Source: Raja brachyura
Taxonomy: Eukaryota
Length of the DNA stretch: 64,000 nucleotides
Assembly: GCA_963514005.1 (NCBI GenBank)
Contig: OY740804.1
Span: 14,880,001 to 14,944,000 of the forward strand
Direction: 5' to 3'
This document shows, one piece after another, positions 25,778 through 63,956 of this stretch. The notes under the pieces are model-generated. The model saw only the letters and a list, made by a program, of their open reading frames with translations. It was not told the origin of the DNA and searched no databases. Every line of letters starts with the position of its first letter. Positions within the stretch are counted from its first letter, which is position 1. A program made the translations under genes and the position numbers.

Positions 25778-25958
25778 TTTAAACACGTCTTAATTTTAGA
25801 CCCAACACCATTCCAGGAGCTACCAATGAAGGTCCCAACCCAAAATGTTGCACCCTTTCCAGTTTGCTCTGCATTTGTGCAATTTATAGGGACACTTTCA
25901 TTTTGTTTTAACAACAGCACGGAGGTTGATCATTGATTCTGAAATCTGTTCCTCGTAG

Positions 25959-26990
25959 TAGGTATGTTACAAAACTTACCTTGAGCAGCGCTGCAGTTCT
26001 GCCGCTACCCGTGTGCGCGACTTTGGCGCCTTTCAGAGGGGGGCGGGCTTAAAGTGCCATTTTTCCACAGGCAGGGAAAATCGATCAATGTCGGGCGATT
26101 TCGTTGCGGAAGAAAAATCGCTCCGACATTTCATGAATGAAGGTATTTTTAAATTACTCTAAATTATTTATTAACTAGAGTAATTTAAAAATCACCTTCA
26201 AAAGCCGTGAGCGCCGACAACCGGAAGGATTTTGCGTAGGGGAGAAGAAAAGGTAAATAGTTTATTTTTATATTAAAAGTTGTTTTTTCGGGAGGCTTTA
26301 ATAACATTTTCATGTTGCGAAATGGGGTTCAAAAAAATGTATGAACAAACAGTATTTTTCATACCGACTTCACCGGTAACCGCAACGTTCCAATCCACCG
26401 CATTCCACTAAAACCCACTCGCTAGTTGATTTAAATGGCCATTAATTTACAGGAATCAAACACTAAATTCCTTCCATTTGGCCCAGAAATTCATGAAAAT
26501 GGGATTTAAAAATTATGTTATATTGTGGATTATTGTGTGAATGTTATTTGGACACTTAGGCAATTTAAAGAAAGTTTATTTTTTCTTAAGAAATGGGTAG
26601 ATGTTTAGATCTACTCATTGAATTTTGTAATTAGCTACAATTAGATAACTAACTAATTATATGCTTTAATTTCAGGTCATCCGAGTAAGATTGTTTCATA
26701 TTTGTTTCAGAATGCTTCAATCTATAATAACTGAAAATTTCATTTAGTTCTCTTAATTTTTAAGAAAGATATGGGCTTTTAACTGTTCTAGATCACAGCT
26801 TTTGAGTTGTCAATTGAAAGGCAATGGGGAACAAGATGCTAATTTCCGAGTATGAAAATGGTCATAACTTTCTTAGTACTGAAGATGTGAAAGTGAATTA
26901 GGTGTCGAATTAAACTTCATTTTATGCTTTATCTGATGGAATAAATTGCAGACTTGATTTTTAAAATCTCAAAATTTTGTAACATTGCTA
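25959..26990 (-). mobile_element. ~1.03-kb non-autonomous DNA transposon, copy 1 (TAG...CTA TIRs, 7-bp TSD)
   Basis: imperfect TIRs TAG(G/C)(T/A)ATGTTACAAAA; TSD CTCGTAG at 25952-25958 and 26991-26997; reverse complement of copies 2-4. Confidence 0.92.
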
Positions 26991-27279
26991 CTCGTAGCCA
27001 GAGTCCGTGGACGAAATCCACTGCCACCCCATGGCTTGGAACCTCACATCGTGCAGTGGTCCTGGTGATCTGCAGCTGCAGGACAAGCGTCAGACGTATG
27101 GCTAGGAACCTTGAGAGAGAGGATTTCTAATCTGCAGTGTTGATGCAGTGTCACCTTGCATTATGCAGTTTATAATAGAATCGAAGACGAACTACATAGC
27201 CAAATCAAAGCAATGCCCATTTTAGCTTCGGTGAATGAAATGATTCAATGCGTACTAAGCTTAAAAAGTAACATGCAGT

Positions 27280-27800
27280 CTTTGCAACAACCTGGCTTTC
27301 TAGCCTCCAGAGTGCGGTCCTCAGCCGAGCTCGCAGCCCAACCTAGTACGGCTCGGACCAAAATCATAGAGCGGAGCCTATGGTCATTGGCTCGGACGAC
27401 GATGATGCATCAAAGATCATAGAGCGGAGCCGCTCGCTAAAGGATCTTTGGAGCGGAGCTCCCGCTCTATGAACTTTGATGTGCATTGTCTCGGCGGACG
27501 ACAAGTGATTGGACATTTGTTGGACGTTGCGTTATCTCATTGGCTGCTGACGGCCCTCGGGTACAGGGCGCGATGCCTGGGCGCTCGAGCTGGTGGCGCG
27601 CGAGCGGACACGAGCTCGGCTGCGGACAGCGCAAGCGCCGACGGTTCCCGCCCAGGAGAGCGCGCCTCGTATCGCAGCGAGGACGGCCCGTTGTTGTGGC
27701 GACAGGAGAGTGGGTGGGGGTGGGTAAGGTGTGCCAGAGGCAAGGTCACGCGGTGGCGGGAAAACGTCGACTGGCTGTAGAGGGTGAGGTGTCCAGGGAT
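27280..27800. promoter_or_regulatory. CpG-island-like promoter between the divergent DRAM2 and SYCP3-like genes
   Basis: sharp rise in GC and CpG in non-repeat DNA; reverse CCAAT boxes (ATTGG) at ~27508 and ~27539; GGCGGGAA E2F-type motifs at 27645-27652 (minus) and 27755-27762; candidate plus-strand donor gg|GTaagg at ~27724. Confidence 0.65.
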
Positions 27801-28151
27801 AGGGGTGAGGTGATTCCGGATGGGGTAGATGTGTCCGGGGGTGAGGTGTCGGGGAGTAACTATGAGTCGCGAGGAAGGAGCGTGAGGTGTCGGTGGACGA
27901 GGGGTCAGGGGTGAGGTATCGGGGTGGGCGTGAGGTGTCGAGGGTGATATGTGGTCAGAGGGAGCGTGAGTTGGCGAGGGGAGGGGTGTGAGATGTTGAA
28001 GAAGAGGGTGAGGTACCGAGAAGGGGGTGAGGTATTGGGTGAATAGTTGCGGGGGTGAGGTGTCGCGGGGGGGGGGGGGGGGGTGTGAGATGTTGAAGAA
28101 GAGAGTGAGCTGCCGAGAAGGGGGTGAGGTATTGGGGGAATGGGTGTAAGG

Positions 28152-29180
28152 TAGCAATGTTACAAAATTTTGAGATTTTAAAAATCAAGTCTGCAATTTA
28201 TCCCGTCAGATAAAGCATAAAAAGAAGTTTAATTTGACACCTAATTCACTTTCATATCTTCAGTGTTAAGAAAGTTATGACCATTTTCATACTCGGAAAT
28301 TAGCATCTTGTTCCCCATTGCCTTTCAATTGACAACTCAAAAGCTGTGATCTAGAACAGTTAAAAGCCCATAACTTTCTTAAAAATTAAGAGAACTCAAT
28401 GAAATTTTCAATTATAGATTGAAGCATTCTGAAACAAATATGAAACAATCTTACTGGGATGACCTGAAATTAAAGCATATAATTAGTTAGTTATCTAATT
28501 GTAGCTAATTACAAAATTCAATGAGTAGATCTAAACATCTACCCATTTCTTAAGAAAAAATAAACTTTCTTTAAATTGCCTAAGTGTCCAAATAACATTC
28601 ACACAATAATCCACAATATAACATAATTTTTAAATCTCATTTTCATGAATTTCTAGGCCAAATGGAAGGAATTTAGTGTTTAATGCCTGTAAATTAATGG
28701 CCATTTAAATCAACCAGCGAGTGGGTTTTAGTGGAATGTGGTGGATTGGAACGTTGCGGTTTGTGGTGAAGTCAGTATGAACAATACAGCCGGTTCATAC
28801 ATTTTTTTTGTCCCCTTTTCGCAACATGAAAATGTGATTAAAGCCTTCCTAAAAACCAAGTTTTTATGTAAAAATAACCTGTGTAGCTTCTTTTATCGCC
28901 TACCTTAGGTCCGTTCCGCTGTCACCATTCAGAGCTTTAGAAGATGATTTTTAAACTATTCTAGTTAATAAATAACCTAACGTAGTTTAAAAATACCTTC
29001 ATGAATGAAATGTCGGAGCTATTTCTCTTTAGCGACGAAATCGCCCGACATGGATCGACTTGGACTGCCTAGAAAAAATCGGCATTTTAATCCCGCCCCC
29101 CTCTGAAAGGCGCCAAAGTTGCGCACACGGGGAGCGGCAGAACTGCAGCGCTGCTAAAGGTAGGTATTGTAACATACCTA
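28152..29180 (+). mobile_element. 7-bp-TSD DNA transposon, copy 2
   Basis: TAGCAATGTTACAAAA...TTGTAACATACCTA; TSD TGTAAGG at 28145-28151 and 29181-29187. Confidence 0.92.
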
Positions 29181-29321
29181 TGTAAGGTGCCGGGGAATGG
29201 GTGTGAAATGTTGGGTGGGGGTGAATTGTCAGTGGGTGAAAGCACGAGGCATCGGGAGGGGGTATGAGGTGTCGGGGAGAGTGGTTTAGATGTCGGGGAG
29301 GGTCATGAGATGTTGAATATA

Positions 29322-30313
29322 TAGCAATGTTACAACAAAAAATCAAGTCTGCAATTTATCCCATCAGATAAAGCATAAAACGAGGTTTAATTTGGCACCT
29401 AATTCACTTTCATATCTTCAATATTAAAAAAGTTATGGCCATTTTCATACTTGGAAATTAGCATCTTGTTCCCTATTGCTTTTCCATTGACTTAACACAA
29501 AAGCTGTGATCGAGGACAGTCAAAAGCCCATAACTTTCTTAAAAATATAATAAATTTTCAGTTATTATAGATTGAAGCATTCTGAAACAAATATGAAACA
29601 ATCTTACTTGGATGACCTGAAATTAAAGCATATAATTAGTTAGTTACCTAATTGTAGCTAATTACAAAATTCAATTACTAGATCTAAACATCTATCCATT
29701 TCTTAAGAAAAGATTAACGTTTTTAAATAGCCTAAGTGCCCAAATAACATTCACACAAGAATTCACAATATAACATGATTTTTAAATATCATTGTCATGA
29801 ATTTATAGGCCAAATGGAAGGAATTTAGTGTTTAATTCCCGTAAATTAATGGCCATTTTAATCTTGCGAGTGGGTTTTTGTGGAACGCGAACGATTGGAA
29901 TGTTGTGGTTTGCGGTCAATTTGAACCACATATCGGCAGGAAAAACACTGCTGGTTCGTATGTGGTCATAATCACATTTTCGCCAATGAAATTTTGATTA
30001 AAGTCATCCTAAGAAGCAAGTTTATATGTAAACTAAACGACTTACCTTATGTTTTGTCCTGTACGTGAGATCCGTCTCGTTGACGGCGTTAGAAGTCGCT
30101 TTTTTATTTTACTCCAGCGATTAAATTGTCCCGCGATTTTTTTTTAAACTTCTGAGAACGCAAGCCGGAACAATTTTTCAGCATCAGCTAGCAACCCGAG
30201 AAAATATATCTCAGACAGGCAAGAGAAAACAGCATTTTAATCCCGCCAAAGTCGCGCACACGGCCAGTGGCAGAACTGCAGCGCCGCTGAAGGTAAGTAT
30301 TGTAACATACCTA
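29322..30313 (+). mobile_element. same DNA transposon family, copy 3 (diverged subfamily, TSD not recognisable)
   Basis: same termini and first ~600 bp as copies 2 and 4; different 3' interior. Confidence 0.88.
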
Positions 30314-30679
30314 GATGTAGTATGTCATAGGGTGTGAGTATGTGGTGACAGGTGTGAAGGTGGCAGAGGGAAGGGTGAGGGACGAAAGAGTGAGCGAAAT
30401 ATAGTGTGAGATGTCAGGGAGAGAGAGTTGGGGAGAGAGAGGGTGTGAGGGAGAGTGAGAGCGTGGGGGAGAGTGAGGATGTGTGGTTCAGGGGGTGAGG
30501 GGAAAGTAAGCTGTGTAGTATGGTGGGGGACGATGAGTGTGTGCACTACCAGGAGTGGGGTTTGACTGTAGGGAAGACAATTAAGTTATTGAAGTAAATT
30601 GAAGGGTCCAAGAGATATTAACCTCCTTGTTTGCCTCCACCATTATACTGCATTCAGATGCATTTGTCTTTGAGTCTTT

Positions 30680-31471
30680 GATACCTGCAACTGCCATTGT
30701 GACAAAGTCATGCTTTCAAACTGAAGGAACTGGGCCTGGTGAGCAGCACGACCATGAGTGTTCCCGGTGAGCGGGCCCAAATCCTCCAGTTGGCCCAGCA
30801 CACCCGCCACGAAAGTCGACGGGAACTGGACTGTATGAGCGAGGAGGGACCTGCGAGTAACTGCTGAGAGTGAGATGAGCCGTCGGAGAGCAAAGTGGAG
30901 CGGCGTGTGGCTGAGGACGGGCCCACGTGAGGACCGGGGGCCAGACAGGCCCGGGTGAGGACTGGAGGCCAGACAGGCCCGCGGTGGGAGACAGAGGTCG
31001 GACAGGCCCACTGTGGGTGTTGGATGGGCCCTGATGGGTGCCGGAGGTCGGATGTGCCCACATTTGGTGCTGGTGGTCGGACGGGCTGTGGTGGGTGTTG
31101 GAGGCCGGATGGGCCTGTGGTGGGTGTTGGAGGTCAGTTGAGGATGCACCACCAAGCGAACAAAGGGACCTGACAATGGTGGTCCACCGAGAATGAGGAG
31201 GGAACCATCGTGGGGGGGGGGGGGGGGTGGGGGCGCCGAGAGAGCAAAGATGGACCTGGTATGGGGGGGCTACCAAGAGAATAAAGAGGAACCCAGCGTG
31301 GGGCGGGGGGGACTAAGAACAAAGAGGAACCATTGGGACTACTTTGAACACTCTGTAACTTTGTGGGTGCGCTATACGTGGCAACTCTTTGCATACTTTG
31401 TGCATGGTATGCGAAACTAAGAATTTCACTGTGGCATGTCACGTGATAATAAAGTATCATTTATTCATTCA
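30680..31471 (+). mobile_element. GC-rich non-autonomous retro-derived element with Rex/L2-type tail
   Basis: internal ggccagacaggccc repeats; tail gaatttcactgtg..atgtcacgtgataataaa..attcattca; 5' boundary uncertain. Confidence 0.4.
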
Positions 31472-32021
31472 CCTTTCCCTCATTACACCATACAAGATAC
31501 GTATTCAACATGCCTCAATGAACTAGAGAGGAGCATGTCACAAGCAGTACTAGGTGTGCCTAAAGATGAAGTGCCAACCTGTGACGCTGCTGCTTAGGCA
31601 AATGTGCTAACAGCATACCTACCTCCTAATTGCCATTAGTAAATGTTTCTTATAAACAGGAAAATAGATCAGAAATGCAATTCAGCCACATCTAATCGTA
31701 ATTGGTCATAGAGCATTAAGCAACTAATGGAAGAAAGAGATTCCAAGAACATCCCCATCCTCATAATAATGTGCATCAGTCACAAATGCTGAATGGATGA
31801 TCTTCCTGCAGTCCCTACCATCACGTACTGTATACCAGTCTTTAGCCAATTCAATTGAATAATCGAAGATAGACACAAAATTCTGGATCAACTCAACGGG
31901 ACAGGCAGCGCTGGAGAGAAAGAATGGGAGAAGAGAAGGAATTCAATTGAAAAATCATTGTATTAAACACAGCAAAGGCCACAACATCCCATCAAGTTGA
32001 TCCACAAGTATGTTGAGGTAC

Positions 32022-32668
32022 TCTTACACTCGTGTACAGCGCCGCTGAGTACATCGCCCCAGCATGGTGCCGCAGCGCTCATACTAGCAAGCCATCCTCA
32101 ACGACACCATGCGGATCATCACCGTTGCCTACACCCTACTCCGACGGATCTTCTGCTGGTGCTAGCAGGTATCGCACCCGCCAAGCTTCGCAGAAAGTAC
32201 TTCACTCATACACTGGTGTGCAAGGCCCCATCGGACGCCAAACATCCTTTGCACTACCTCGCCCAGGACTCACAGCAACTGGGAGCTCAACGCCTGTCAT
32301 CTTGTCGCCCCTTCTCCCGTCTCGCAGCGAGCCTCTGTGGCTCTGGTTTTAACACAAAGAGCATGGAGAACCAGCTGTGGACAGACTTCACGACCTCCAC
32401 AATTCACTGTTGCACCACAGCCCCACCTGGCTCGGACCTGCCCCGCAAAGAGTGGGTTGCCCTGAACGGCTCCATACAGGGGTCGGCCGGTTCAATGCCA
32501 ACATGCATCGCTGGGGACTGCAGTCATCAGCAGCCTACATGTGTGGAGCAGACCAGCAAATAGCGCAGCACATCATTTTCAACTGCGCTGTCCTCACCCC
32601 CTTGGTGGAGGGGCAGACCTCATGGCCCCCAACAGCACGTTGAACTGGCTACAGCGCTTGGAGGGCAC
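32022..32668 (+). mobile_element. Vingi/Ingi-like non-LTR retrotransposon 3' fragment
   Basis: YSAAEYIAPAWCRSAHT, CL(H)PTPT..L.VLAGIAP..LRR, RLHTGVGRFNANMHRWGL...CG...Q...HI...C C-terminal zinc-knuckle region; GTAC on both flanks. Confidence 0.65.
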
Positions 32669-33034: not shown

Positions 33035-35750
33035 TTAAGGCTGGTTAGAGAGGAAATTAACGCAATAGAAAGGAAGGACATTAGCTTGGAGGATGTGGAA
33101 TCGATATGGGTAGAGCTGCGAAACACTAAGGGGCAGAAAACGCTAGTGGGAGTTGTGTACAGGCCACCTAACAGTAGTAGTGGAGTTGGGGATGGCATCA
33201 AACAGGAAATTAAATGCGTGCAACAAAGGTAAAACAGTTGTAATGGGTGACTTCAATCTACATATAGATTGGGTGAATCAAATTGGCAGGGGTGCTGAGG
33301 AAGAGGATTTCTTGGAATGTATGCGGGATAGTTTTCTAAACCAACATGTAGAGGAACCAACGAAGGCTCTTCTAGACTCTAGAGGAACCCAGGCTCTTCT
33401 AGACTGGGTATTGAGTATTGAGTAATGAGGAAGGGTTAGTTGACAGTCTTGTTGTGCGTGGCCCCTTGGGCAAGAGTGACCATAATATGGTTGAGTTCTT
33501 CATTAGGATTGAGTGACATAATTAATTCAGAAACAAAGGTTCTGAACTTAAAGAAAGGTAACTTTGAGGGTATGAGACGTGAATTGGCCAAGATAGACTG
33601 GCAATTGATTCTTAAAGGGTTGATGGTGGATAGGCAATGGAAGGCATTTAAAGACTGCATGGATAAACTACAAAAATTGTTCATCCCAGTTTGGCAAAAG
33701 AATAAATCAGGGAAGGTAGTACATCAGTGGATAAGAAGGGAAATCAGGGATAGTATCAAAACAAAAGATGAAGCATATAAATTAGCGAGAAAAAGCAGCC
33801 TACCAGAGGACTGGGAGAAATTCAGAGTCCAGCAGAGGAGGACAAAGGGATTAATTAGGAAAGGGAAAATAGATTATGAAAGAAAACTGGCATGAAACAT
33901 AAAAACTGACTGCAAAAGTTTTTATAGATATGTGAAGAGAAAAAGATGGATTAAAACAAATGTAGGTCCCTTGCAGTCAGAAACAGGTGAATTGATCATG
34001 GGGAACAAGGACATAGCAGACCAATTGAATAACTACTTTGGTTCTGTCTTCACTAAGGGAGACATAAATAATCTGCTGGAAATAGCAAGGGACCGGGGGT
34101 CAAATGAGATGGAACTGAGTGAAATCCAGGTTAGCCGGGAAGTGGTGTTAGGTAAATTGAATGGATTAAAGGCCGATAAATCCCCAGGGCCAGATAGGCT
34201 GCATCCCAGAGTACTTAAGGAAGTAGCCCGAGAAATAGTGGATGCATTAGTGATAATTTTAGAAAACTCTTTAGATTCTGGAGTAGTTCCTGAGGATTGG
34301 AGGGTAGCTAATGTAACCCCACTTTTTAAAAAGGGAGGGAGCGAGAAAACGGGGAATTACAGACCAGTTAGTCTAACATCGGTAGTGGGGAAACTGCTAG
34401 AGTCAGTTATTAAAGATGGAATAGCAGTACATTTGGAAAGTGGTGAAATCATTGGACAAAGTCAGCATGGATTTATGAAAGGTAAATCACGTCTGACGAA
34501 TCTTATAGAATTTTTCGAGGATGTAACTAGTAGAGTGGATAAGGGAGAACCAGTGGATGTGTTATATCTGGGCTTTCAGAAGGCTTTCAACAAGGTCCCA
34601 CACAAGAGATTAGTATGCAAACCTAAAGCACATGGTATTGGCGGTTCAGTATTGATGTGGATAGAGAACTGGCTGGCAGACAGGAAGCATAGAGTAGGAG
34701 TAAAAGGGTCCTTTTCAGAATGGCAAGCAGTGACTAGTGGGGTCCCGCAGGGCTGGGTGCTGGGACCCCAGCTATTTAAAATATATATTAATGATTTAGA
34801 CGAAGGAATTGAATGCAACATCTCCAAGTTTGCGGATGACACAAAGCTGGGGGGCAGTGTTAACTGTGAGGGGGATGCTAGGAGGCTGCAAGGTGACTTG
34901 GATAGGTTGGGTGAGTGGGCAAATGCATGGCAGAAGCAGTATAATGTGGATAAATTTTAGGTTATCCACTTTGGTGGCAAAAACAGGAAAGTAGACTATG
35001 ATTTGAATGGTGGCTGGTTAGGAAAAGGGGAGATGCAACGAGACCTGGGTGACATGGTACACCAGTCATTGAAAGTAGGCATGCAGGTGCAACAGGCAGT
35101 GAAGAAAGTGAATGGTATGTTAGCATTCATAGCAAAAGGATTTGAGTATAGGAGCAGGGAGGTTCTACTGCAGTTGTGCAGGGTCTTGGTGAGACCACAC
35201 CTTGAGTATTGCGTAGTTTTGGTCTCCTAATTTGTGGAAAGACATTCTTGCCATAGAGGGAGTACATAGAAGGTTCACCAGACTGATTCCTGGGATGTCA
35301 GGACTTTCATATGAAGAAAGACTGGATAGACTCGGCATGTACTCGCTGGAATTTAGAAGATTGAGGGGGGGATCTTATAGAAACTTACAAAATTCTTAAG
35401 GGGTTGAACAGGCTAGACGCAGGAAGATTGTTCCCGATGTTGGGGAAGTCCAGAACAAGGGCTCACAGTTTAAGGATAAGGGGGAAATATTTTAGGACCG
35501 AGATGTGAAAAACATTTTTCACACAGAGAGTGGTGAATCTCTGGAATTCTCTGCCACAGAATGTAGTTGAGGCCAGTTCATTGGCTATATTTAAGAGGGA
35601 GTTAGATGTGGCCCTTGTGGCTAAGGGGATCAGGGGGTATGGAGAGAAGGCAGGTACAGGATACTGAGTTGGATGATCAGCCATGATCCATTTAATGGTG
35701 GTGCAGGCTCGAAGGGGCGAATGGCGTACTCCTGCACCTATTTTCTATGT
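33035..35750 (+). mobile_element. young CR1 LINE (endonuclease C-half, RT, 3' tail), 5'-truncated
   Basis: ESIWVEL, VYRPPN, MGDFNLHIDW, 342-aa RT ORF 33932-34960 with SPGPD, NYRPVSLTSVVGK, KFADDTK; CR1 3' UTR ending ttttctatg; TGTAC at both junctions. Confidence 0.96.
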
Positions 35751-42585: not shown

Positions 42586-42881
42586 AGGGCCTGTCCCACT
42601 TAAGCAATTTTTTCGGCGACTTGCCGGCACCTGTCATAGCTGCAGTAGGTCGCCGAAAGTGTTAAAAATGTTGAAAATCCAGCGGCGACCAGAAAAAGGT
42701 ACGACTCTTTGGGCCACATGTCACGGGGTGACGTCTGTATGGTTGTGAGTAGTGGCCCAAAGAGTCGTGCCTTTTACAGGTCGTCGCTGGATTTTCAACA
42801 TTTCGAAAATTGTCGTCGACCTGCTGCGACAGACGGATGCTGGCAACTCGCCGAAACATTTGCGTAAGTGGGACAGGCCAT
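42586..42881. mobile_element. PIF/Harbinger-like MITE
   Basis: TIRs AGGGCCTGTCCCACTTA / TAAGTGGGACAGGCCAT, extensively palindromic interior, TAA on the left flank; inserted in a CR1 3' region. Confidence 0.75.
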
Positions 42882-43812: not shown

Positions 43813-44692
43813 AGGGGCGCTGCAATCCAGCAGCCCTGCCAGCAGCGTGTTAGTTTTTTCAACTTTTAAAATTTTTTTAGTGTGTCATAATGTGTGTTTA
43901 CAATGTTTCTTTGTGTATCTTGTATGGGGGGGTAAGGGGGAAACCGTTTTGGTCGCCTCCTCCACGGAGAGGCGACTTTTTCCATGTCGCCTCCCCCGTG
44001 GCCTAACAGCAAGGTTCCACGTGTGGCCTTTCCCGGAGACGTGCCCGGGGCTTCAGCGGCGGGTGCAGCGTGGACTCTCGTTGCGGAGTGGGCGAGCCCT
44101 CGCCGGAGGGGAGGGTCCGCGGCAGTCTGAAGCTGCGGTCTGCGGAGCTCCAGCTGGCGCGCGTCCGCAGCATGGGATCCCTCATTGGGGACCCAGGAGG
44201 AGAAGAAGCTCCGACCGCCGGCCCGTGGCCTACTTCTATCGTGGGCGCGGCGGTGATTTACCATCGGGAGCGGGGTCCCTCATCGAGGACCCCTAGAGAG
44301 GATCTCTGACCGTCGGCTTTGCGGTCTGCAGTGCTTCTGCCTGCGGCATGGCGGGGACTTTAAATCTTCGACCTGTGGCCTACACCAACCTGAAGCCGTG
44401 GTCTCGGTGGGGAAGCACCAATTCAGGACTTGCCTGGACTTTATCTTGTCTGAACATCTGGACGCCCGCAGCGGCGGCTACGGAGGGTTGAGGTCTCGAC
44501 CCCGGGAAAAAATGGAGGAGGACTGGGCAAATTGTGTGCCTACCACCACAGTGATGAATGCTGTGGTGGATGTTTGTGTTAAATTTTTAGTATGTTTTTT
44601 GTGTGTTCTTTTTTCATTGTACCGCTGCTGGCAAAGTCATATCACTTGCACTTTATGTGCAAGTGATGAATAAAACTGATATTGATATTGAT
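43813..44692 (+). mobile_element. non-autonomous LINE-derived element with GC-rich core and (GATATT)n tail
   Basis: same architecture as 25161-25777; interrupts an older Penelope-like remnant (~43250-45460). Confidence 0.55.
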
Positions 44693-45469
44693 AAACAGAA
44701 GGTCAGAGTGGGAGTGAGATAAGAAATAAAAGTGATAGCTAACAGGAAGCTCAGGGTTATTCCTAAAGACCGAACAAAAGTGCTACTGAAGTTATCACCT
44801 ATCTGCATTTGGTTTCTCCAAATAAGAGGAGACTACATCGTGAGCAATATAAGCTGTACACTACAGTGGTAGAAGTACATGTAAAATGCTGGTTAACCCT
44901 GATAGGACATTTTGAGCTATGAGATGGTGGCAAGGGAAGAGGTACCAATGCATTTGTTACATGTACTATGGTTGGATGAGAAAGTGCTATGAGAGGGAAA
45001 TGGTTTCGCCAGACTTCTGAAAGGATAGGAAAGGATATTGTTGTTGTACTGCAGATCCATTGAATGCAGAGGCGGGTGGACTGGAAATTGAGGACCTGAG
45101 GAACTCTATCCTGGCTCTGGTCCAGTGCAAAGGAGGGAAGAGCAGAAGAGCAGATGTAGATTATAGGCAGCAGAGAGCTTAATCAACTATGTTAGACTGG
45201 AAGGCATGATTAATCTCAGAGGTCTTGTAATCAGAGCTGATATGATGAGGTCGGAGGAACTTGGCGAATGGAATGAAATCCTTCCAGGAGGCAGTGGGAG
45301 GAAGAATAGTCAAGATATTTGTGAAAGTCTATGGGTTATAATAGATGTTTGTTGCTGACTAATCCTCTGAAATGGAAGACAGAGATCCAGAAAGGGAAAG
45401 GAAGAATCGGAGATGTGATGGGTGCAGCATGGTGGAAATTGCTGTCAAAAACAAATTGTCAAGCTCCAT

Positions 45470-46589
45470 ATGAGTGCAGAAAGCAAGACCTTCTACGCCT
45501 GCTTGGATGAGACACTGTCTAGAATCCCCAGGGAGGATAAGATTCTTCTCTTGGGAGACTTCAACGCCAGGGTCGGCCGGGACGAACATGTCTGGAAGGG
45601 TACCATAGGCATCGGGAACATCAACTCCAACGGAGCTCTGCTTCTCAGCAAATGTGCACAGCACGACCTCACCATCACTAAAACCCTCTTTCGCCAGAAA
45701 AACAAACTTAAGGCATCTTGGAGACACCCCCGCTCCAAACAGTGGCATCTCATTGACTGTCATTGTACGAGCCAGGGACCGCCGTGACGTGAACATCACA
45801 AGGGCCATGATTGCTGGACAGATCATCGCCTCATCCGCACCATGATGTCCATCAAACTCAAGAGGAAGAGGATTCAAAATAAGCAGATCCGGCCAAGGCT
45901 GAAGCTTGAAAGCCTAGAAGTAACCTACCGAGCAGCGACTTCGGGCTTCTCTTGTGGAAAGCCTCCAATAGGAATATCCTGATGACATTGAAGAGCACTG
46001 GAAACGGCTCAAATCCACCATCCTTGATACCTGCAAAACGATCTTTGGGTGCAATTCCAGAAAACATCAGGACCGGTTTGACGAGAACGACAGAGATAGA
46101 ACAGCTCATCTCCAAGAAAAGGAAAGCCTTTTTTGCCTGGCAAAATGATGTAACCTGCAAGGCCAAAAGAGAGGCTCACTCCAGAGACAAGACGAATGTC
46201 CAGAGTCGGGTGAGGGAGTTAAGAACTCTTGGTGGGCAGAAAAAGCTCTGGAAATCCAGAGACTGGCAGACTCGGGTGACACCAGAGGCTTCTTCAGCGC
46301 TACTAAGGCCGTCTATGGTGCAAGCTACTACGGTGTAAACCCCCTGCTCTCAAAGGACAGGCAAGAACTGCTGAAGGACAATGTCCATAAATGCCCAATG
46401 GGAGGAGCACTTCCAGGAACTCCTCAACTGTGACAGCACAACTGAACCAGACATTACCGACCACATTCCGCAGAGTCCCATCAGAGAAGACACCGAAGAA
46501 CCTCCCACTATGACAGAGGTTCAAGATGCCATCAAGAGCCTTAAGAACAACAAGGCCACCGGTCCTGATGGGATCCCAGCTGAGATTTT
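45470..46589 (+). mobile_element. RTE-clade LINE, 5' part (endonuclease and tether)
   Basis: FY..LD......DKILLLGDFNARVG, N.NG..LL..C, WRHPRSKQWHLID, LKNNKATGPDGIPAEI. Confidence 0.9.
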
Positions 46590-49475: not shown

Positions 49476-49514
49476 CCAGCTGAGATCTTAAAGGAAGGTG
49501 GACCGGAACTCCTG

Positions 49515-52455
49515 TAATAATAATAATAATAATATATTTTATTGTCATTACACATAAGTACAATGAGATTTGGTTTGCAACTTCCATCCGATGTCATAAC
49601 TTAATCGACAAATAAAATTTAGGTTTAGATACCCCGAGAACAAGGTTTATAAAAACGAACATTAGACCAGTAACATCAACACAGACTAAAGTGTGAGGCT
49701 GGGGGAGACAGTCCATGGGGGTGGGGGGGTACTCAGCAGGGCCAGTTCAGAGCCGCTATAGCTCTGGGAATGAAGCTGTTCCTGAGTCTGGAGGTGCGGG
49801 CATAGAAGGCCTTGTAACGTCTGCCGGAAGGGATTAGTTCGAACAGTCCATTACAAGGGTGAGAGGAGTCTTTATGTATGCTGATGGCCTTCCTGAGGCA
49901 CCGTGTGTGGTAGATGCCCTCCAAGGCTGGTAGCGGTGTCCCAATAATCTGTTGCGCTCTGTGGACAATGTGCTGAAGTGCTCTCCTCTCCGCCTCCGTG
50001 CAGCTGAGATACCACACAGAGATGCCATACGTTAATATGCTCTCTGTGGTGCAGCGGTAGAAGGTCGTCAGCAGCTGTTGGGGCAGACCAGTCCGTTTGA
50101 ATGTTCTTAGGAAGAACAGTCGTTGTTGTGCCTTTTGGACCAGCGCAGCGGTGTTGGTGGACTATGAGAGGTCCTCTGAGATATGAGTGCCCAGAAACTT
50201 GAAGCTGGACACTCTCTCCACACTGTCCCCGTAGATGGAGATTGGGGCGTATTCCCCATTCAGTGACGTCCTGAAGTCGATAATCAGCTCCTTGGTCTTG
50301 GAGGTGTTTAGCGACAAGTTGTTCCGTGAACACCAATCCGCCATGTTCTGCACCTCCACTCTATAGTTTGTTTCATCACCGTTGGTGATCAGCCCGATCA
50401 CCGTTGTGCCTTCTGCAAACTTGACAATGGTGTTGTTGTCAAATGCAGGGACACAGTCGTGGGTGAAGAGGGAGTAGAGCATGGGGTTCAGTACACAACC
50501 CTGTGGTGTGCCGGTGCTCAGGGTGATAGTAGAGGACAGGTGCGGCCCCAGTCTCACTACCTGCGGTCGCTCCGTCAGAAAATTCAGGATCCAATCGCAT
50601 ATCAGTGAGCTGAGGCCTAGCTGGTGGAGTTTGGTGGTGAGCTTGGTGGGGATGACTGTATTGAAGGCAGAGCTATAGTCAATGAAGAGCATCCTCACGT
50701 AGGTGCCCTGTCTTTCCAGGTGGGTCAGGACAGTGTGAAGAGCCACAGAGATGGCATCCTCTATGGATCTATTTGCCCTTTATGCAAATTGAGAATCCAA
50801 TGATGCAGGGATGCTGGATTTGATGTGGGGGAGGACCAGTCTTTCAAAGCACTTCATTGGCATTGGAGTTAGGGTAACCGGGTGGTAGTCATTCAGGTTG
50901 GTGACTTTAGACTTCTTTGGCACCGGCACTATGGTAGCTGTCTTCAGGCACATGGGGACCGTTTCCAGAGATAGAGGCAGGTTGAAGATCCTCGTAAATA
51001 CCTCCGTACAGCACAGTGCTTTAGTACCCTACCCTGGATTCCATCCGGGCCTGCAGCCTTGCGTGGATTGATCCTACGCAGAGCGCACTATACCTCCTGT
51101 GTGCTCAGTGTTAAGGCCTGTCCCTCGCCATGGTCGGGGTTGTTCCTCTCCTGGTGGTGCTGCCAGTTTCGAAGCGTGCGAAGAATGTGTTTAATTCATT
51201 GGCCAGTGTGATATCACTGTGGGGGCAGGTGGGGCTGCTCTTGTAGTCAGTGATGTCCCTGACACCCTGCCGTAAGCGTCTCGTGTCCGCGGTGTTGAAG
51301 TGGTCTTCCACCCTTTGCCTCTGGATGTCTTTGGCCTTTTTTATGCCTTTGTTCAGGTTTGACCTGGCAGCACTGTAGGCAGAAGTGTCCCTGGATTTAA
51401 AGGCAATGTTGTGTGCCCTTAGCAGATTCTGAACCTCCTCGTTCATCCACGGTTTCTGGTTTGGGAACATCTTTATTTGCTTGTCCACTGTGACAGTCTC
51501 CACACAGCAGTTGATGTAGGAGAGCACAGTGGATGTGTACTACTCCAGGTCTACCTCTGTGCCACTGGTAGCCTGTTGTGCAAACAGGTCCCAGTCGGTG
51601 CGATCAAAGCAGTCCTGGAGTTGTAGGGTGGCGTCCTCGGGCCATATTTTGACCGTCTTTATTGCAGGTTTGGTCTTGCGGATGAGGGGTTTGTATGCAG
51701 GCAGTAGAAACAGTGAGAGGTGATCGGATTGTCCCAGGGATGGGCAGGGGAGGGCTCTGTACGCGTCCTTGATGTTGGTGTGCACTTTATCCAGCGTGTT
51801 TGAGCCCCTGGTAGGGCACTGCACATGCTGGTGGGATTTGCGGAGTGCAGCTCGTAGGTCCACCTGATTAAAGTCCTCTGCAACAATGAAGGCACCATCG
51901 GGGTGAGCATCCTGCTGCTTTCTGATGGCCGAGTGCAGCTATGCTAATGCTAGGTTAGCATTAGCCTGTGGTGGGATGTGTATGGCCATGATGATAATCA
52001 CAGTAAACTCCCAAGGCAGTTAAAACGGCCTACATTTAAGCAGTAGGTATTCCAGGTCTGGGGAACAGTAGCTTTCTACTGCAGTGTGGTTGGTGCACCA
52101 GTCCTTGTTGATATAGATGCAGAGCCCGCCGCCCATGCTTTTACCGGAGTCCTTTGGTCTCTCAGCACGATACAGTGACCGGCCGGTTAAGTCCACAGCC
52201 CCGTCGGGAACCAGCGCGCTGAGCCAGGTCTCTGTGAAGATCAGCACACAGCAGTCTTTCAGGGATCGCTGGGTGTTGATCTTCACAGAGACCTGGCTCA
52301 GCTGGGTGTTGATCCAGAGCCTCACCTCATCCAGCTTGTTGGTGAGTGACCGGACATTCGATGGAAAGACGCTTGGTAGCGATGGTCTTTGTGGAGCCCT
52401 CCGTAGCCTGTCCTGCACCGCCGCTCACCTTCCACGTTTCTGCTTCCTCTCCCGG
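49515..52455 (-). mobile_element. near full-length Rex1/Babar LINE, decayed
   Basis: [83 protein letters not shown] (FADD mutated), PSGRRY; (TTA)n tail. Confidence 0.93.
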
Positions 52456-53888
52456 TGCATTACCACATCCACGCTCTACTCCTCCAGGTCTGGGAAAACG
52501 ATCTCCCCTCAGAACTCAGTGATGCTCTAATAGTGACCATTTTCAAGAAGGGGGACAAGGCTGAATGTGGAAACTACAGGGGCATCTCGCTCTTGTCAAC
52601 AACAGGCAAAGTCCTTGTTTGTGTCCTCGCAAACCAACTTCTACCACTGTCTGAAGAGGTACTTCCAGAATCACAGTGTGGCTTCCGCCCATCTAGAGGT
52701 ACAGCAGCCATGATATTCACAGCATGCCAACTCCAGGGAAAATGTTGTGAACAAAAGCAGCCTTTGTGCATGGCCTTCATGGAGCTGATAAAGGCTTTTG
52801 ACTCGGTAGACCATATTATCAAGGTATGGTTGCCATGACAAGTACATCAGAATATTGAGGCCACTACATGATGGCACGTTGGTCATAGTGCTCAGCAACT
52901 GCGGCTCTGAGTCCAAGTCCTTCACTGTGGAAACGGGGGTCAATCAGGAATGCATCATTGCACCCATCCCGTTTGTCATCTTCATTGCTGCCATACTTCA
53001 CCTCATTAGTGAAGAGCTGCCACAGGGGATCCCAATCCGCTACAGAACTGACGGTGGGCTCTTTAACCTTAATAAGTTGAAGGCCAAGAGCAAAGTCAGT
53101 GACACCGCCATCATGGAGCTTCAGTATGCGGACGACTGCGCCATTGCAACACACTCCGCAGAAGACCTCCACGACACCCTGAATGCCTTTGCCAAGGCAT
53201 ACAGAGCCATGGGCCTAGCCTTAAACATCAAGAAGACCCAGGTCCTACATCAACCTCCACCCAACTAGCCATCTACCCAGCCCACTATAAAAGTGGACGA
53301 CTATAAAAGCTGACATCGACTCTGAGGTCAACCATCGCCAGAGTTGTGCCAGTGAAGCCTACGCCAGACTCGGGAAAGAGTCTTTCAAGACCGAGAGATA
53401 AAGGCTAAAAAAAAACATGCTGGTTTACAGAGCCGTTATCCTCCCCACTCTGTTGTATGGAGCTGAGTCATGGACCACTTACAGCAGGCACCTGAGAGCC
53501 CACAGCGGGGTCAAAGAAACGTTTCAGGGACAACATCAAGAGTCAAGAGTGTTTTATTGTCGTATGTCCTGGATGGGCAATGAAATTCCACATCACATCG
53601 AGCAACTGGGAGCACATTGCACTGGACAAGCGCTCCTAGAGGAAATCCGTGCAGGAAGAAACTGCATGTCATGAAACGGAACTACGCCGTGTCGCAGAGA
53701 CAAAGCGACGGCACCATAAGGAGAGAAAGAAGGGGGCTCGACGACTACCAACCACCGCCAGTCTCCACTGCACGCATTGCACCAAAGTGTGCGCATCGGC
53801 CTCTACAGACATCTGCAGACCCACAAATAGACAACCGTATGGAGAGGAGAGGCCAGTCATACTCGTTTAGAGTGACCGCAGATGATGA
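52456..53888 (+). mobile_element. RTE-clade LINE, 3' part (RT and C-terminus), continuing 45470-46589 and 49490-49514
   Basis: IVTIFKKGDKAECGNYRGISLLS, LPESQCGFRP.RGT..MIF, KAFDSV, LQYADD, YRAVILPTLLYGAESWT; GATGATGA tail. Confidence 0.92.
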
Positions 53889-57324: not shown

Positions 57325-57830
57325 AGAAACAGAAAAACTGCAGATGTTGGAATCCTGAAGTGCTGGAGGAACTCAGCAGGTCTGGTAACATCTATGGAGA
57401 AAATGCATAGATGTTTAGGGTCAGGAATTCTCCACTTTCAAGTGATGTCACCCTACTCCTTCCCCTTCTTTCACACACTTATCTCAGTCCCAATTCCCCC
57501 ATGTCCTTTCGGTCTCCCCTTTTTCCTTTCCCCTTTCTATCCATATCCCTCCCTCCAGTTTTACATTTCACTCCTTTTATCACCTTGTCTGACACTCATT
57601 TGTCTCCTTTTCACCTCTAGTCTTGTCATTTACTACACCTATCTGCCAATAAATCCCCCCTCACCTGCATTCACTTGCTGGGCTTTGTTCTGCCCCCACC
57701 TCTGCTTTCCAGTGCCCTGTCCCCTACTTCTGTCAGTGCGAAAAAGGGTCCCAAACTAAAACATTACGTATATATCCATTCCCTCCACAGATGCTGCCTG
57801 ACCTGCTGAGTTCCTATAACACTTTGTGAT
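57325..57830 (+). mobile_element. decayed Penelope-derived element with inverted termini
   Basis: ctgcagatgttggaatc..gtgctggaggaactcagcagg at the left end and its inverse gatgctgcctgacctgctgagttcct at the right end. Confidence 0.6.
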
Positions 57831-59339
57831 CAGCTTTCACATGCAGCCTTTATGTCTCAGAAATTAGCACCACATGAAGCCTCGTGATGATGAGATCACT
57901 GTTGTATTGCTGTAGGAGCACAATGCAGACTGAACAGATGTATTTTTAACGTACTAAGAGAATATACCTGTCCGTGTTCAGTTTCCAGGGCTAAGAGAGC
58001 TGTTATGAATGAGTGCTCTGCGGAGTAGCACAAACCGTTGTACCATTTTATATTTGAATTCAAGGATAAAACTGGAATTGAGAGTAATAGGACATTCGTT
58101 CAAAAAATGTGCAAACAAACATGAAGAGGAAAGGTCTGTGTTTGGTTATTATTTGAATAACCTAATGTAATTTCTGATTTTTTGCATTTGACACTTATTA
58201 TCTACCTAATTATCTAGCTAATTATCACAACATTCAATAAAAAATAAGACAAGTTTAATGATGGGGTATCGGTAATTTAGTTTAATTTATTATTGCCATG
58301 TGTACCGAGATACAGTGAAAATACTTGCTATCTGGTCAAATCATATTGTACATGGGTACAATTATGCACAAGTAAAAGAGTGAAAATACTGTAAGTAGAT
58401 CCTCTTCTGGGATAGCCAGCAAAGAGTCGCCTAGCTCCGGAGCCATCTTTCAACTTTTGAGTCTCAAGTCTCTGAAAAGTCCAATCTTGGCCAAAGGAGA
58501 TATGCACATTTTTATTGCTTCACTTTAAACCTCAGTGACCTGGTGGCACTGAATCGATGAAATAGAGGTTGGCCTGGCCCAACACGATGCTGTCACCTCC
58601 TTCTACCTCCCCTGTTCAATCTGCTTGATCACCGGGCTTCTGTAGGGTCTCCAGTAGCCACCTTCACCAACAACTATGCCATCCATTGCCTCCCACAGCC
58701 ACACCTCCACTTCCTTCTGCCAAGGAATTTTAGAGCGCTTTCTGAGGTTGTGGGAGGTGAACTCCCAGATTGTTCATCGCTACTGACTTTCCCTTGTACC
58801 TTCCATTGCCACCATCCTGAGAATGTTGTTGAGAAAATGTCCTAATCTTTTTTTTCACATTAATTTAATCCTTGAGTGCGTGAGTACAAATAGTTAAAGC
58901 CAGAGAAACAATTTCAACAATTACGTTTGATAAATAGAAATACACATCCAACTAGTTAATGGCAGGCAGTTGGAGGGCAGATGTACTAAGGACGAAATGC
59001 AGTATTTTGAGGAACAATTAAAAGTCCTGTTACCCCCTGACTGCCAACTCGATTAAAAAGTGCCAGATAAGGCCTGAACTTGACAGCTGGGGACCGGAGG
59101 AAGTGATCCCTGAGAGATAAATTATAAAGGTTAGCCTGAAGATCACAGTGAGATTACAGATATTATCAAATCAGGAGATGAAAAGCCAGCTGCGGTGGAG
59201 AAGTTCAATGATTGATAGAAAGTTTCCTGCCCCTCCTCATACAAAGAACAACTCTAAAAGCATAAAGACTAACATACCACTTTTTCTTCTTATCACTTGC
59301 TGCACCTGCATCAACAACACATTTAATTAAACAAGTAGT

Positions 59340-59491
59340 AGGAAAGAACTGCAGACTGGTTTAGATCGAAGGTAGACACAAAATGCTGGAGTAATTCAAC
59401 GGGACAGGCAGCATCTCTGGAGAGGAATTAAACAGGGTGATGTTTCGGGTCAAGACCCTTCTTCAGTCTACAGCGTTTTGTGTCTACCTTT
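59340..59491 (-). mobile_element. short Penelope-derived insert with hammerhead core
   Basis: 14-bp TSD ATTAAACAAGTAGT (59326-59339 and 59492-59505); minus-strand CTGAAGA-a-gggt[cttg]accc-GAAA-c-ATC at ~59435-59466. Confidence 0.8.
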
Positions 59492-60699
59492 ATTAAACAA
59501 GTAGTCTTCTATTACATTCACCAAAATGGATGAATTCATATTTTTCTGCATTATATTCCATCTGCCATATTGTTCCCACTCACCTTATTCATAATCCCCC
59601 AAAGCCTAATTTCATCCTCTTCCATACAATCCTACCTAGATTAGTAATATCAGGCTTAGAAATAGAACATTTGGTTCCCTTAACTAAATTGTTGATATAG
59701 TTTGTGAATAGCTGGGGTCCAAATGCTGACACCTGCAACACCGTAATGCTCACAGCCTGTCTAAGAAAGATTCCTACATTTGTTTTCTGACTGTTCCTTA
59801 ATTCTCATGGAGTCGTATAGCACAGAATATTTCCGTCAGCCCACTATGCCGTGCTAACTACCAATACCAGTCTATACTAACCCTTTTACAAGCTTGGTCT
59901 GAAATTTTCCATGCCTTAGTTAAATGCTCACGTGGATTAATCTTAAATATTGTGAGAGCACCTGCCCCTGTCACCCCTTCGTGTCAAATATATCAGGCAG
60001 GTTTTGTTTGTTTTCCTTCATGAAGACAAAATACGACATAATTTCTTAACTTCTCTGCTATTTCCTTATTTCCTATTGTACATTCTTCTTTGTTCATCTG
60101 TAAGAGGCCTACTTTTACCTGCAGGTCTTTCAATTTGTACATACTTATGAAAGTTCTTATAGTTCATTTTTATGTTTGTTGCCAATCTATCCTCCTATTT
60201 CATCTTGCATTCCTTCATCTATCTCTTGCCAACTTTAATCTCTCTTGTTAACCATAGATGAATTACTTTTCCTTTTGTGCCTTTATGTCACTTCTTCTGT
60301 AGTTTGTGTATTTTTTCTTTTCGTGTTAGGCATTGTTTGTCCACAGTCATTCCTTTCAATATGTTCTCCAAATCCACTACAGCCAACTTACCTTCCTTAC
60401 CTCATAGATTCCTGTGTTTAGATTTAAGACCCTTATTTTGCATTGAAAGACATTGCTTTCAAACTTAATTTAAAATTATATCATGTTAAAGTCATTATTT
60501 CCCAAAAGGAAATTATAATCATGAGAGAACAGGGCTAGTTTTCCTATTGCAATAAAGATGGAGTAGGTTTAATAAAGGGATTTAAATTAAGGATAATTTT
60601 TTTTAAAAGCTCCTTCGCTAGCAACAGAAACGGGTAGGAGGTAGGGCAGACAGGGACCATTATACATGACAACAACTGACCAATGCTATATACAGGTAA

Positions 60700-61735
60700 T
60701 AGCAATGTTACAAAATTTTGAGATTTTAAAAATCAAGTCTGCAATTTATCCCATCAGGTAAAGCATAACAAGAAGTTTAATTTGACACCTAATTTACTTT
60801 CATATCTTCAGTATTAAGAAAGTTATGGCCATTTTCATGCTCGGAAATGAGTATCTTGCTTCCCATTGCCTTTCAATTGACTTAACTCAAAAGCTGTGAT
60901 CTGGAAAAATTAAAAGCCCATAACTTTATTAAAAATTAAGAGAACTCAATGAAATTTTCAGTCATTATAGATTGAAGCATTCTGAAACAAATATTAAACA
61001 ATCTTACTTGGATTACCTGAAATTAAAGTATATAATTAGTTAGTTATCTAATTGTAGCTAATTACAAAATTCAATGAGTAGATCCAAACATCTATCAATT
61101 TCTTAAGAAAAGATAAACTTTTTTTTAATTGCCTAAGTGTCCAAATAACATTCACACAATAATCCACAATATAACATAATTTTTAAATCTCATTTTCATG
61201 AATTTCTGGGCCAAATGGAAGGAATTTAGTGTTTACTGCCTGTAAATAAATGGCCATTTAAATCAACTAGCGAGTGGGTTTTAGCGGAATGCGGTGGATT
61301 GGAACGTTGCGGTTAGCGGTGAAGTAGGGAGGGAAAATACTGGGGGTTCATACATTTTTTGGGGAACCCATTTCGCAACATTAAAATAGTATTTATGCCT
61401 CCCAAAAAACCAACTTTTAATTAAAAAATTAAGTATTTACCTTTTTTTCTCCCCTACGGAAAATGCTTCCGGTGGTCTGCGGTCACGGCTTTTGAAGGTG
61501 ATTTTTAAATTACTCTAGTTAACAAATAACTTAGAGTAATTTAAAAAATACCTTAATGGATGAAATGTCGGAGCGATTTTTCTTCCGCAATTAAATCGCC
61601 CGACATTCATCGATTATCCTGGTCTGGTGAAAATCGGCACTTTAAGCCCGCCCCCCTCTGACAGGCGCTAAAGTCGCGCACACGGGGAGCGGCAGAAGTG
61701 CAACGCCGCTAAAGGTAAGTTTTGTAACATACCTA
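60700..61735 (+). mobile_element. 7-bp-TSD DNA transposon, copy 4 (same subfamily as copy 1)
   Basis: TAGCAATGTTACAAAA...TTTTGTAACATACCTA; TSD CAGGTAA at 60693-60699 and 61736-61742; inserted in an older MITE also seen at ~11695-11790. Confidence 0.93.
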
Positions 61736-63956
61736 CAGGTAACAAACAGGTTCCATTTTTGCAGGCGTTCGCAAATAGATTTTTTTCCTCATAAGTTGGA
61801 AAATACACAGAAAGTCAATATGGTAACTATACCTCCACAGTATTCTAATGAATTCATAACAAGCACATTAGACTAAGCTGGATGAACAATTACTAAATGA
61901 GAGAGGAAACTAGTTATGTTGTTCGTAGGAACAAACATTCAATTTTATACAGCTCAGAAACAGGCCTTTCAGCCCAACTAGTCCATGCAGACCAAGTTAC
62001 CCAACCAATCCCACTTCATGTGCCTTGTCCATACTCCTCCATACCTTTTCTGTCCATGTACCTATCCAAGTGTCTTCAATATCATAATTGTACCCATGTC
62101 TACCACTTCCTCTGGCAGCTTGTTCCATATATAGACCATACTCTGAAAAACTAACCCCCAGGTCCCTTTTTGATCTTTCCTCTCACCTTAAAATTATGCC
62201 CTTTGGTTTTAGACGCTCCTGGCGTGGGGAATAAACTTTGATTATTCATTTATTTATTGTTTATTGTATGTTTAACCGTATAATTTAATTATTTTATGGG
62301 AGCTCGCTCATTGGCAACCCAGGGATGGCCTTTGCTTCAACTTATTGCACATTTAAGCGTTCAGGAATTCACTGATTGCCTTCACTGTTTTTATTCCAGC
62401 ATCAACAGTCAGGCAGAGGCATGCAGATTTGCAAGAATTGTAGACTTCCTGACTGTTCTAGTGACGATACACTGCACACATATAGTGCATTCCCCTGCTC
62501 TTGAGAAACGAACGCTGCATGATTCACAAGGCCTATCATTCCCCAAATATACAACTTGGGCCAGACCATGAGAAGAAATTTCTTAGGTCACTATCATGAA
62601 TCCATGAGGTTCACATAACTTCTTGCTCATTTGGAGGATTGGATGTTGAGAAATTAAGCATTTGCCCTACCTTTGTTTTTGATCTGAATCCATACTCCAA
62701 TGAGTGAAACTGATTGCCAGTATAATAATTACCGCAGGACCATCAGAAATAGTGAATGCCAACGGGTCACATAGAATAGGATTCTGGTTTCTCTACTGCC
62801 CTAGGACTGCCCTACAATTCTCACCAGGGAACATTGTTTACTGATTCATAAGCTGTATTCTCCCATTTAACCTCCCTCTCAGTTTTTGCCTGTGACCCTC
62901 CAAAAGGAAGTGGTCGAGCAACAGGTGGTCGAACAACAGACGGAGCAGGCAGCAGAGGCAATCAGCAATGAAACAAGACTCTCCTTAGGTATTTAGCCCG
63001 GTACTATGGCACTGCTCGGCAATTCTTTTGAGGATTTACCCCATAGACTCTACCTGAGCACGGATAATGGAAATGGTGGGCTACACTCTGAACACCTGCC
63101 TTTGATATTCAATTGCCAAGGCCCCATGGTGAAAGGTTTGCATTAAACTCCAACACTGCATTTCAGTTGCAGTTGATACCACCTACAGCTGGTTCCAAAA
63201 GCCTTGATGCTTGCTACAATAAGAATTGCAACAAATTGCAGAAAGGTTTGCCATGATTGCCAGGCAGTTTCCATGGAGTAGTTCCCAATGGAACATTCCT
63301 TTGCCGCAAGCAAAGAATTCCTTAACCCTTTCAGAAGTATTCTTTGTTTCAAGCAGCGAGGCAGTCTGGTGGTTTATATTACTAACGGCTCCAACAGAAT
63401 AAGTATCGCACACCGGATTTAGGAAAAAACTCAGGTTTTTATTTGTATTAATTGCACATCGAACCTAGCTTTAGCAGCTGTCCCCAGCTTCTGAGTTGAT
63501 GCTTTGAGATGTTGGGGCAATTCTCTTACGGATTCACTGCAGAGACCAGGGAGACAACAATGGTAGAAATAGTAGACCATACAAAGGCCACTTGTGTTTG
63601 GTATTCAATTGCACTTCAATTGTAGTTGACACCACCTACAGTTGCTTCCTAATGCCTTGATGCTTGCTACAATAAGACTCTTCAGCTCCTTTTCTTGAGC
63701 TGCTGGGTGAAAGTGAGGGCATGGAGATTTGTGGGTGTTATTGCCTCCAGAGTCCAGAGTGATTCAAGCAAAATTAGGTTAATCATGGTGAATATGTTAT
63801 ACTGTTAAGCAGAATGACCAGCACACATTAGATGCACTTCACTAATGAGAGGAGAGAGTATGTGGTAATGGTCAAATAGATACTTGCGTACCTGGGCTGT
63901 TCCTCGCATTGTCATTTATACCAGGTCCTGAGGCTTGAGCCACACCACGTCAGTTA

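Follow-up and report, generated by a model that had tools for sequence, protein, structure and literature searches.

Typical hAT transposons generate an 8-bp target site duplication (TSD) and possess the terminal motif YARNG (PMC3014272). Non-autonomous vertebrate elements of this type, as described for Anolis, are 0.3–1.5 kb long, have terminal inverted repeats (TIRs) of 12–16 bp, lack an open reading frame (ORF) and form recombinant mosaics, recombination among these families being known (PMC3014272). The TSD length varies among hAT lineages, with values of 5, 6, 7, 8 and 9 bp on record (PMC4455052, PMC6004678, PMC12730594), and Repbase, which sorts non-autonomous elements by TSD length and by the first 11 bases with no more than one mismatch, includes hAT families annotated with a '7-bp TSD' (PMC4455052). 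The hATm elements have TAG...CTA ends of the form TAGGGTG, 8–9 bp TSDs and non-autonomous partners that share the termini only (Zhang et al. 2018, PMC6004678). Here four related elements of ~1 kb are described in a 64,000-nucleotide stretch of the Raja brachyura genome (assembly GCA_963514005.1, contig OY740804.1, positions 14,880,001 to 14,944,000), referred to throughout as the window. The elements resemble the Anolis families in size, TIR length, absence of an ORF and mosaic composition, but possess neither the 8-bp TSD nor the YARNG ends of the latter. Similarly, they share TAG...CTA ends with hATm, but are flanked by 7-bp rather than 8–9 bp TSDs and have TAGGTATG and TAGCAATG ends in place of TAGGGTG. 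The best overall reading, to which a probability of about two in three is assigned, is that these are non-coding cut-and-paste elements served in trans by a transposase that makes a 7-bp stagger and is probably of the hATw type.

The strand assigned to each of the four copies is the one that reads the AT-rich TAGCAATG end first.

25959-26990, minus strand: copy 1, full-length non-autonomous element of 1032 bp
28152-29180, plus strand: copy 2, full-length non-autonomous element of 1029 bp
29322-30313, plus strand: copy 3, 992 bp, the most divergent copy (78-81% overall)
60700-61735, plus strand: copy 4, full-length non-autonomous element of 1036 bp

A preliminary description of this DNA had placed the copies at exactly these coordinates, and all four are full-length (992-1036 bp) with TAG...CTA ends. 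Conservation across the copies terminates precisely at TAG and at CTA in every case, and the first base beyond each end differs among them (G, G, A, A and C, T, G, C). Within the window, the terminal 14-mer matches exactly at eight places only, namely the eight ends; two further sites with 2 mismatches are at chance level. A profile search of the window with nhmmer revealed no fifth copy. The four-copy family occupies 6.4% of the window.

Exact 7-bp repeats immediately flank three of the four copies.

25952-25958, plus strand: left TSD of copy 1, CTCGTAG (7/7 match)
26991-26997, plus strand: right TSD of copy 1, CTCGTAG (7/7 match)
28145-28151, plus strand: left TSD of copy 2, TGTAAGG (exact repeat)
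29181-29187, plus strand: right TSD of copy 2, TGTAAGG (exact repeat)
60693-60699, plus strand: left TSD of copy 4, CAGGTAA (exact repeat)
61736-61742, plus strand: right TSD of copy 4, CAGGTAA (exact repeat)
29309-29315, plus strand: possible displaced left TSD of copy 3, GATGTTG (6/7 match to the right flank at 30314-30320)

The occurrence of these three repeats, which bears out the earlier claim, has a p value of about 6e-12 against a background in which 364 of 3,131,675 window pairs share an exact 7-mer across a gap of 990-1039 nt (1.2e-4). The length of the duplication was examined further by moving either end by -3 to +3 nt and considering repeats of 2-12 bp. No shift produced a repeat longer than 7 bp common to two or more copies, including the 8-bp TSDs that the preliminary description had considered might emerge once the ends were redefined, and the shorter solutions were parts of the 7-mer or the dinucleotide TA, which is trivial because TA is its own complement. 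Duplications of 8, 9 or 2 bp were ruled out by this test and the true TSD is 7 bp. The TSD sequence differs from site to site and therefore there is no fixed target. Each of the three duplications (at 25952, 28145 and 60693) begins with a pyrimidine and ends with a purine; together they agree with the palindrome YTANTAR, selected post hoc, at 11/18 positions (p 0.017), although three sites are too few for a target consensus. The 6/7 match at copy 3 is located 6 nt outside the end within a degenerate G-rich repeat and may be due to chance. When the period of the flanking degenerate repeat was used as a surrogate for the empty site, a length of 7 tied with a length of 1 at copy 2 and no peak was evident at copy 3.

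The ends and internal features of copy 1 are representative of the anatomy of the elements.

25959-25977, plus strand: TIR at the GC-rich end, complementary to 26972-26990 at 16/19 positions
26972-26990, minus strand: TIR at the AT-rich end, pairs with 25959-25977
26041-26046, plus strand: GC-box-like motif, 83 nt from the GC-rich end, with a putative promoter role
26087-26130, no strand: internal inverted repeat B, z -3.7
26138-26200, no strand: internal inverted repeat A of ~63 nt, z -7.7

The TIRs are short (14-19 bp) and consistently asymmetric, as had been noted previously: 12 of the first 14 positions match in all four copies, the first 19 positions include 16, 14, 13 and 16 matches in copies 1-4, respectively, and the same CA/GT mismatch is found at positions 4-5 in every copy. 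This fixed difference would mark distinct left and right ends. The GC content is 28-30% in the ~600-bp arm with the TAGCAATG end, which is CpG-poor, and 41-42% in the arm with the TAGGTATG end, where the observed/expected CpG ratio is 1.1-1.4 in all four copies compared to 0.44 for the window. The elevated ratio is consistent with young age or with a promoter-type arm. The GC-box-like motif is present in copies 1, 2 and 4; in copy 3 it is removed by a 17-nt deletion, and a further 12-nt deletion adjoins the TIR at the AT-rich end. Inverted repeats A and B lie next to each other in the GC-rich arm of copies 1, 2 and 4, with z-scores, calculated for regions picked after a scan, of -3.7 and -7.9 for repeat A and of -2.6 and -4.4 for repeat B in copies 2 and 4, respectively. 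Repeat B was not detected in copy 3 (z -0.9), in which no hairpin was significant. The ATGAAA, ATGGCCA and TTAAGAAA motifs recur above shuffled expectation in several copies (uncorrected). Short palindromes in the AT-rich half number 8 compared to about 3.6-4.2 expected in three of the four copies, a marginal excess (7-16 of 300 shuffles) that is absent in copy 3.

A consensus splice donor was observed at 25982-25974 on the minus strand in copy 1 and 16-24 nt from the GC-rich end in copies 2-4. It reads AAGGTAAGT in three of the four copies and points outward from the element, and the terminus itself reads TAG/GTATGT inward. Introner-like removal by splicing was considered but is not supported: the donor-like motifs near the GC-rich end are not accompanied by a conserved matching terminal acceptor.

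The elements possess no coding capacity. Stop-free stretches reach 66 codons at most in any frame or copy, none is common to all four copies, and the AT-rich half contains 11-20 stops in each frame, in agreement with the absence of an ORF proposed initially. Five element frames that were scanned elicited no Pfam match. Alignment of three frames from the GC-rich end yielded 0/180 candidates at E<=1 among longer proteins, which is weak evidence against coding remnants; a second element frame gave 6 matches among 1.84 billion representatives, but all were discarded as artefacts, being spread over several stretches of repetitive proteins, with WD40 repeats among others. Within the window as a whole, 327 stop-to-stop ORFs of at least 60 amino acids without N were collected, 23 of low complexity were dropped and the remaining 304 were scanned against Pfam. 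No hAT transposase domain was found among these 304, in a scan that would miss exons of <60 codons; the matches were to Tc1 (8417-9518), reverse transcriptase/endonuclease, ALKBH8_N, zf-RVT and Frag1. Searches of prokaryotic genomes with two patterns, and of plasmid and phage collections with copy 2, returned 0 DNA matches, as expected for an animal repeat. The shared sharp ends with TIRs, the TSDs of fixed length whose sequence is specific to each site, and the lack of a transposase ORF thus identify the four copies, almost certainly, as non-autonomous TIR cut-and-paste DNA transposons with a 7-bp TSD. Along with the batoid exons described below, these features support the view in the preliminary description that such an element resides in a vertebrate genome.

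The relationships among the copies differ along their length. Overall identity is 78.0-91.5%, but is 89.0-97.3% in alignment columns 1-600, which constitute the AT-rich half, 56.9-87.7% in columns 601-975, and returns to 88.6-93.3% in the last 70-75 columns. The distinction drawn earlier between a conserved AT-rich half and a variable remainder is therefore upheld. The proposal of three subfamilies is not: four copies cannot show subfamilies, and are better described as four distinct mosaic sequences because copy 1 is closest to copy 2 in the AT-rich arm (97.3%, compared to 93.8% for copy 4) and to copy 4 in the GC-rich arm (87.7%, compared to 79.9% for copy 2 in columns 601-975). The ratio of sites that set copy 2 apart to those that set copy 4 apart changes from 3:24 to 58:31, the switch falling near column 549 (p 0.0005 by permutation). 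Of the 25 four-way informative sites beyond column 600, 19 group copies 1 and 4 against copies 2 and 3. Copies 1 and 2 have accumulated 7 and 4 private substitutions in the AT-rich arm, respectively, and copy 4 retains its CpGs even though it is distant from the CpG island discussed below. The paucity of private changes and the persistence of the CpGs in the sequence point to young insertions.

The partner transposase is putatively hAT-type, and hATw is considered the probable source on comparative grounds. In favor of this assignment, the short TIRs and TAG starts resemble those of hATm, and the YAR portion of YARNG is present. Elements of the hATw group have a 7-bp TSD and short imperfect TIRs, properties that the literature consulted did not confirm. 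The group is placed under hAT in Dfam 3.3, in which it comprises 9 of 273,655 families and has no description (PMC7805219), in line with the rarity of the 7-bp class suggested in the preliminary description. Literature listings also connect hATw with a fern, with a fungus and with a sea louse. Searches of open-access main texts returned no paper that reports hATw from a cartilaginous fish, and none of the five papers that contain 'hAT-hATw' deals with a jawed vertebrate genome, although a vertebrate hATw record may exist in supplements.

A number of points weigh against the hATw reading. No adjacent TSD is discernible at copy 3 (2/7 match), leaving three informative TSDs only. The G at position 5 of YARNG is missing from all eight ends, which read TAGGT or TAGCA. 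The resemblance to hATw is in the 7-bp TSD, and the passages that treat hATw in amphioxus, Hydra and molluscs state neither its TSD nor its termini (PMC12905397, PMC13465017, PMC6128900), with nothing further on its features in the relevant parts of PMC8721813, PMC9004415 and PMC5753468. The hAT7 elements likewise are hATs with 7-bp TSDs, but are described for rust fungi only and two non-autonomous entries start with CAAC (Kojima 2025, PMC12730594). As no transposase was found in the window, the superfamily assignment stays inferential, and the 5′ end of the presumed parent element was assigned by CpG content only. Moreover, 7-bp TSDs are not exclusive to hATs: GingerRoot elements, which occur in fish, have them in 5/77 copies and TA...TA termini in 72/77 (PMC6839031).

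It is conceivable, though distinctly less probable, that elements of the same anatomy are mobilized by a non-hAT partner, whether GingerRoot-like, P/Galileo-like, KDZ-like or an unclassified DDE transposase that makes 7-bp duplications. The missing G5 suits this alternative, as do the termini of GingerRoot. However, the GingerRoot TSD is usually 6 bp, so that three of three at 7 bp would be unlikely, and its TIRs of 100-150 bp have no counterpart in the four copies (PMC6839031). Galileo of the P superfamily also produces 7-bp TSDs, and the YTANTAR pattern shares the core of its GTANTAC target, but Galileo has long TIRs, a strong target consensus and a Drosophila host, and is a poor fit (PMC4168063). 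Kyakuja elements combine 7-bp TSDs with CA..TG ends and no TIR, and IS3EU has 6-bp TSDs and TAYGG ends (PMC12730594). Dada also generates 7-bp TSDs but inserts in tRNA or snRNA genes (PMC8869645); the window contains no RNA gene, with 0 Rfam and 0 tRNA matches. No family compared here (hATm, hAT7, Kyakuja, Galileo, Dada or GingerRoot) fits both the ends and the TSD. P-type elements are bounded by CA...TG. It is very improbable, and already largely refuted, that the ends have been misplaced in what is an ordinary hAT or hATm family with 8-bp TSDs or a Tc1/mariner family that duplicates TA. Although hATm shares the TAG...CTA ends, and all four copies show a TA duplication when each end is moved inward by 2, the latter solution leaves the 7-bp repeats unexplained, and no 8- or 9-bp repeat appears in at least two copies at any shift of -3 to +3 nt. 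An 8-bp model also requires a fixed base outside the 7-mer, which is present in one of three copies on either side. Furthermore, 24 of 28 hATm termini in figure S3c begin with TAGGGT and 4 lack G5 (PMC6004678), whereas the TAGGGTG...CACCCTA termini are matched here, ungapped, at 4/7 positions at the GC-rich end and 3/7 at the AT-rich end.

A separate question is whether the similarity and the grouping of copies 1-3 are local effects. Copies 1 and 2 form an inverted pair 1.16 kb apart with the AT-rich halves innermost, and these are 97.3% identical, as gene conversion between neighbors might produce; the cluster of three copies might equally reflect local hopping instead of promoter targeting, since clustering at an unspecified site has a p value of only 0.03 under a uniform model. 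This explanation is a possible but not the favored one. The AT-rich half of copy 4, at a distance of 31 kb, shows 89-95% conservation as well, and conservation of this half is therefore family-wide. In columns 601-975 the divergence among copies 1, 2 and 3 amounts to 20-39%, so that no copy is directly derived from another, and the TSD pairs of copies 1 and 2 are both intact, which excludes a net inversion between them.

In the favored hATw reading, a DDE transposase encoded elsewhere in the genome would be supplied in trans and would bind both TAG-nn-ATGTTACAA termini together with subterminal sites. Candidate sites are TTTCAT/ATGAAA, ATGGCCA, the TTAAGAAA repeats and, more tentatively, the two internal inverted repeats. 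The enzyme would excise the element and insert it at a target site cleaved with a 7-nt stagger, repair of which would create the TSD. Each element may be an internal-deletion derivative of a parent, having kept an AT-rich right arm and a CpG-rich left arm that perhaps was the promoter end of the parent. Related families would have swapped arms through recombination or conversion. The insertions near the CpG island probably result from local hopping, from a preference for open chromatin or from a combination of the two.

The surroundings of the elements include part of a host gene.

14475-14603, minus strand: first coding exon of DRAM2 (43 codons, with ATG), identified by protein match; splice-acceptor-like site near 14660
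4025-4096, minus strand: second coding exon of DRAM2, identified by protein match
27300-27760, no strand: CpG island between copies 1 and 2, a likely DRAM2 promoter, possibly bidirectional

The exon at 14603-14475 gave 106 matches among 113 candidates, the best three of which are batoid (100, 95 and 98% identity). The acceptor-like site ahead of the ATG exon implies a non-coding exon further to the right. The most CpG-rich bin of the window, 27501-28000 (46 CpG, ratio 1.12), overlaps the island, which includes three ATTGG (inverted CCAAT) boxes and a donor-like site at 27724 on the plus strand; judged from sequence features, it is likely to be the DRAM2 promoter and possibly acts in both directions. 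In human, DRAM2 has CEPT1 as its head-to-head partner; none of eight short motifs of CEPT1, considered as the plus-strand gene, was located in the window. Three copies start <2 kb from the island, with a p value of 0.001 for this site, which was fixed but chosen afterwards, compared to the value given above for a cluster anywhere. The second CpG-rich bin, 44001-44500 (45 CpG, ratio 0.87), has no copy nearby. Copies 1 and 2 bracket the island in inverted orientation with inner arms that are 97% identical. A composite transposon of these two copies that carries the promoter was rejected owing to the mismatch of the outer flanks (CTCGTAG and TGTAAGG).

Other observations were made in the vicinity and elsewhere in the window. 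All four copies lie AT-rich end first relative to the presumed transcription away from the island (4/4, not significant). A repeated CATAGAGCGG motif occurs at 27350-27481 inside the island in direct and inverted orientations with 20-nt arms that are 95% complementary, and is possibly a small separate element or a factor-binding array. A Tc1-like element at about 8016-9644 is bounded by inverted ends of ~200 bp and contains a broken transposase, recognized by matches to HTH and DDE_3. A LINE, probably CR1/L2-like and with endonuclease/reverse transcriptase remnants, is present in several copies, at 33147-35750 (plus), 23240-24640 (plus), 10611-11690 (minus) and 2378-3007 (plus). Matches to reverse transcriptase or endonuclease mark other retroelement remnants at 49736-52424 (minus), 52407-53265 (plus), 45419-46335 (plus) and 12623-14033 (minus). 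An 83-nt inverted repeat with a 20-nt spacer at 42642-42827 is possibly another small element, and 163 N fill an assembly gap at 22556-22718.

Elements of this kind, 7-bp TSDs and the swapping of arms are already known, but the family and its host may be new. Should the elements belong to an hATw family with an existing Repbase or Dfam entry, their importance is limited to annotation. Annotated DNA transposons constitute 0.93-2.90% of five batoid genomes (bioRxiv 10.64898/2026.10.27.761883); if common genome-wide, the family would represent a notable component of the batoid mobilome that has yet to be classified, the value of 6.4% here being derived from a single gene-promoter window. A more speculative and rather doubtful proposal is that this is a young and abundant skate/ray family whose 7-bp-stagger transposase belongs to a lineage undescribed in jawed vertebrates (an hATw obtained from a marine invertebrate, or an unclassified DDE enzyme), and which prefers CpG-island promoters, swaps arms and fills much of the 'unknown' repeat fraction of these genomes, which are poor in DNA transposons. 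Near-identical arms in inverted orientation flank the likely promoter and may serve as a substrate for its inversion, as recombination between copies 1 and 2 would flip the island. If genuine, a 7-bp-stagger transposase in a vertebrate host would lend itself to comparative work on how the length of the TSD is set by hAT enzymes and would be a candidate case of horizontal transfer.

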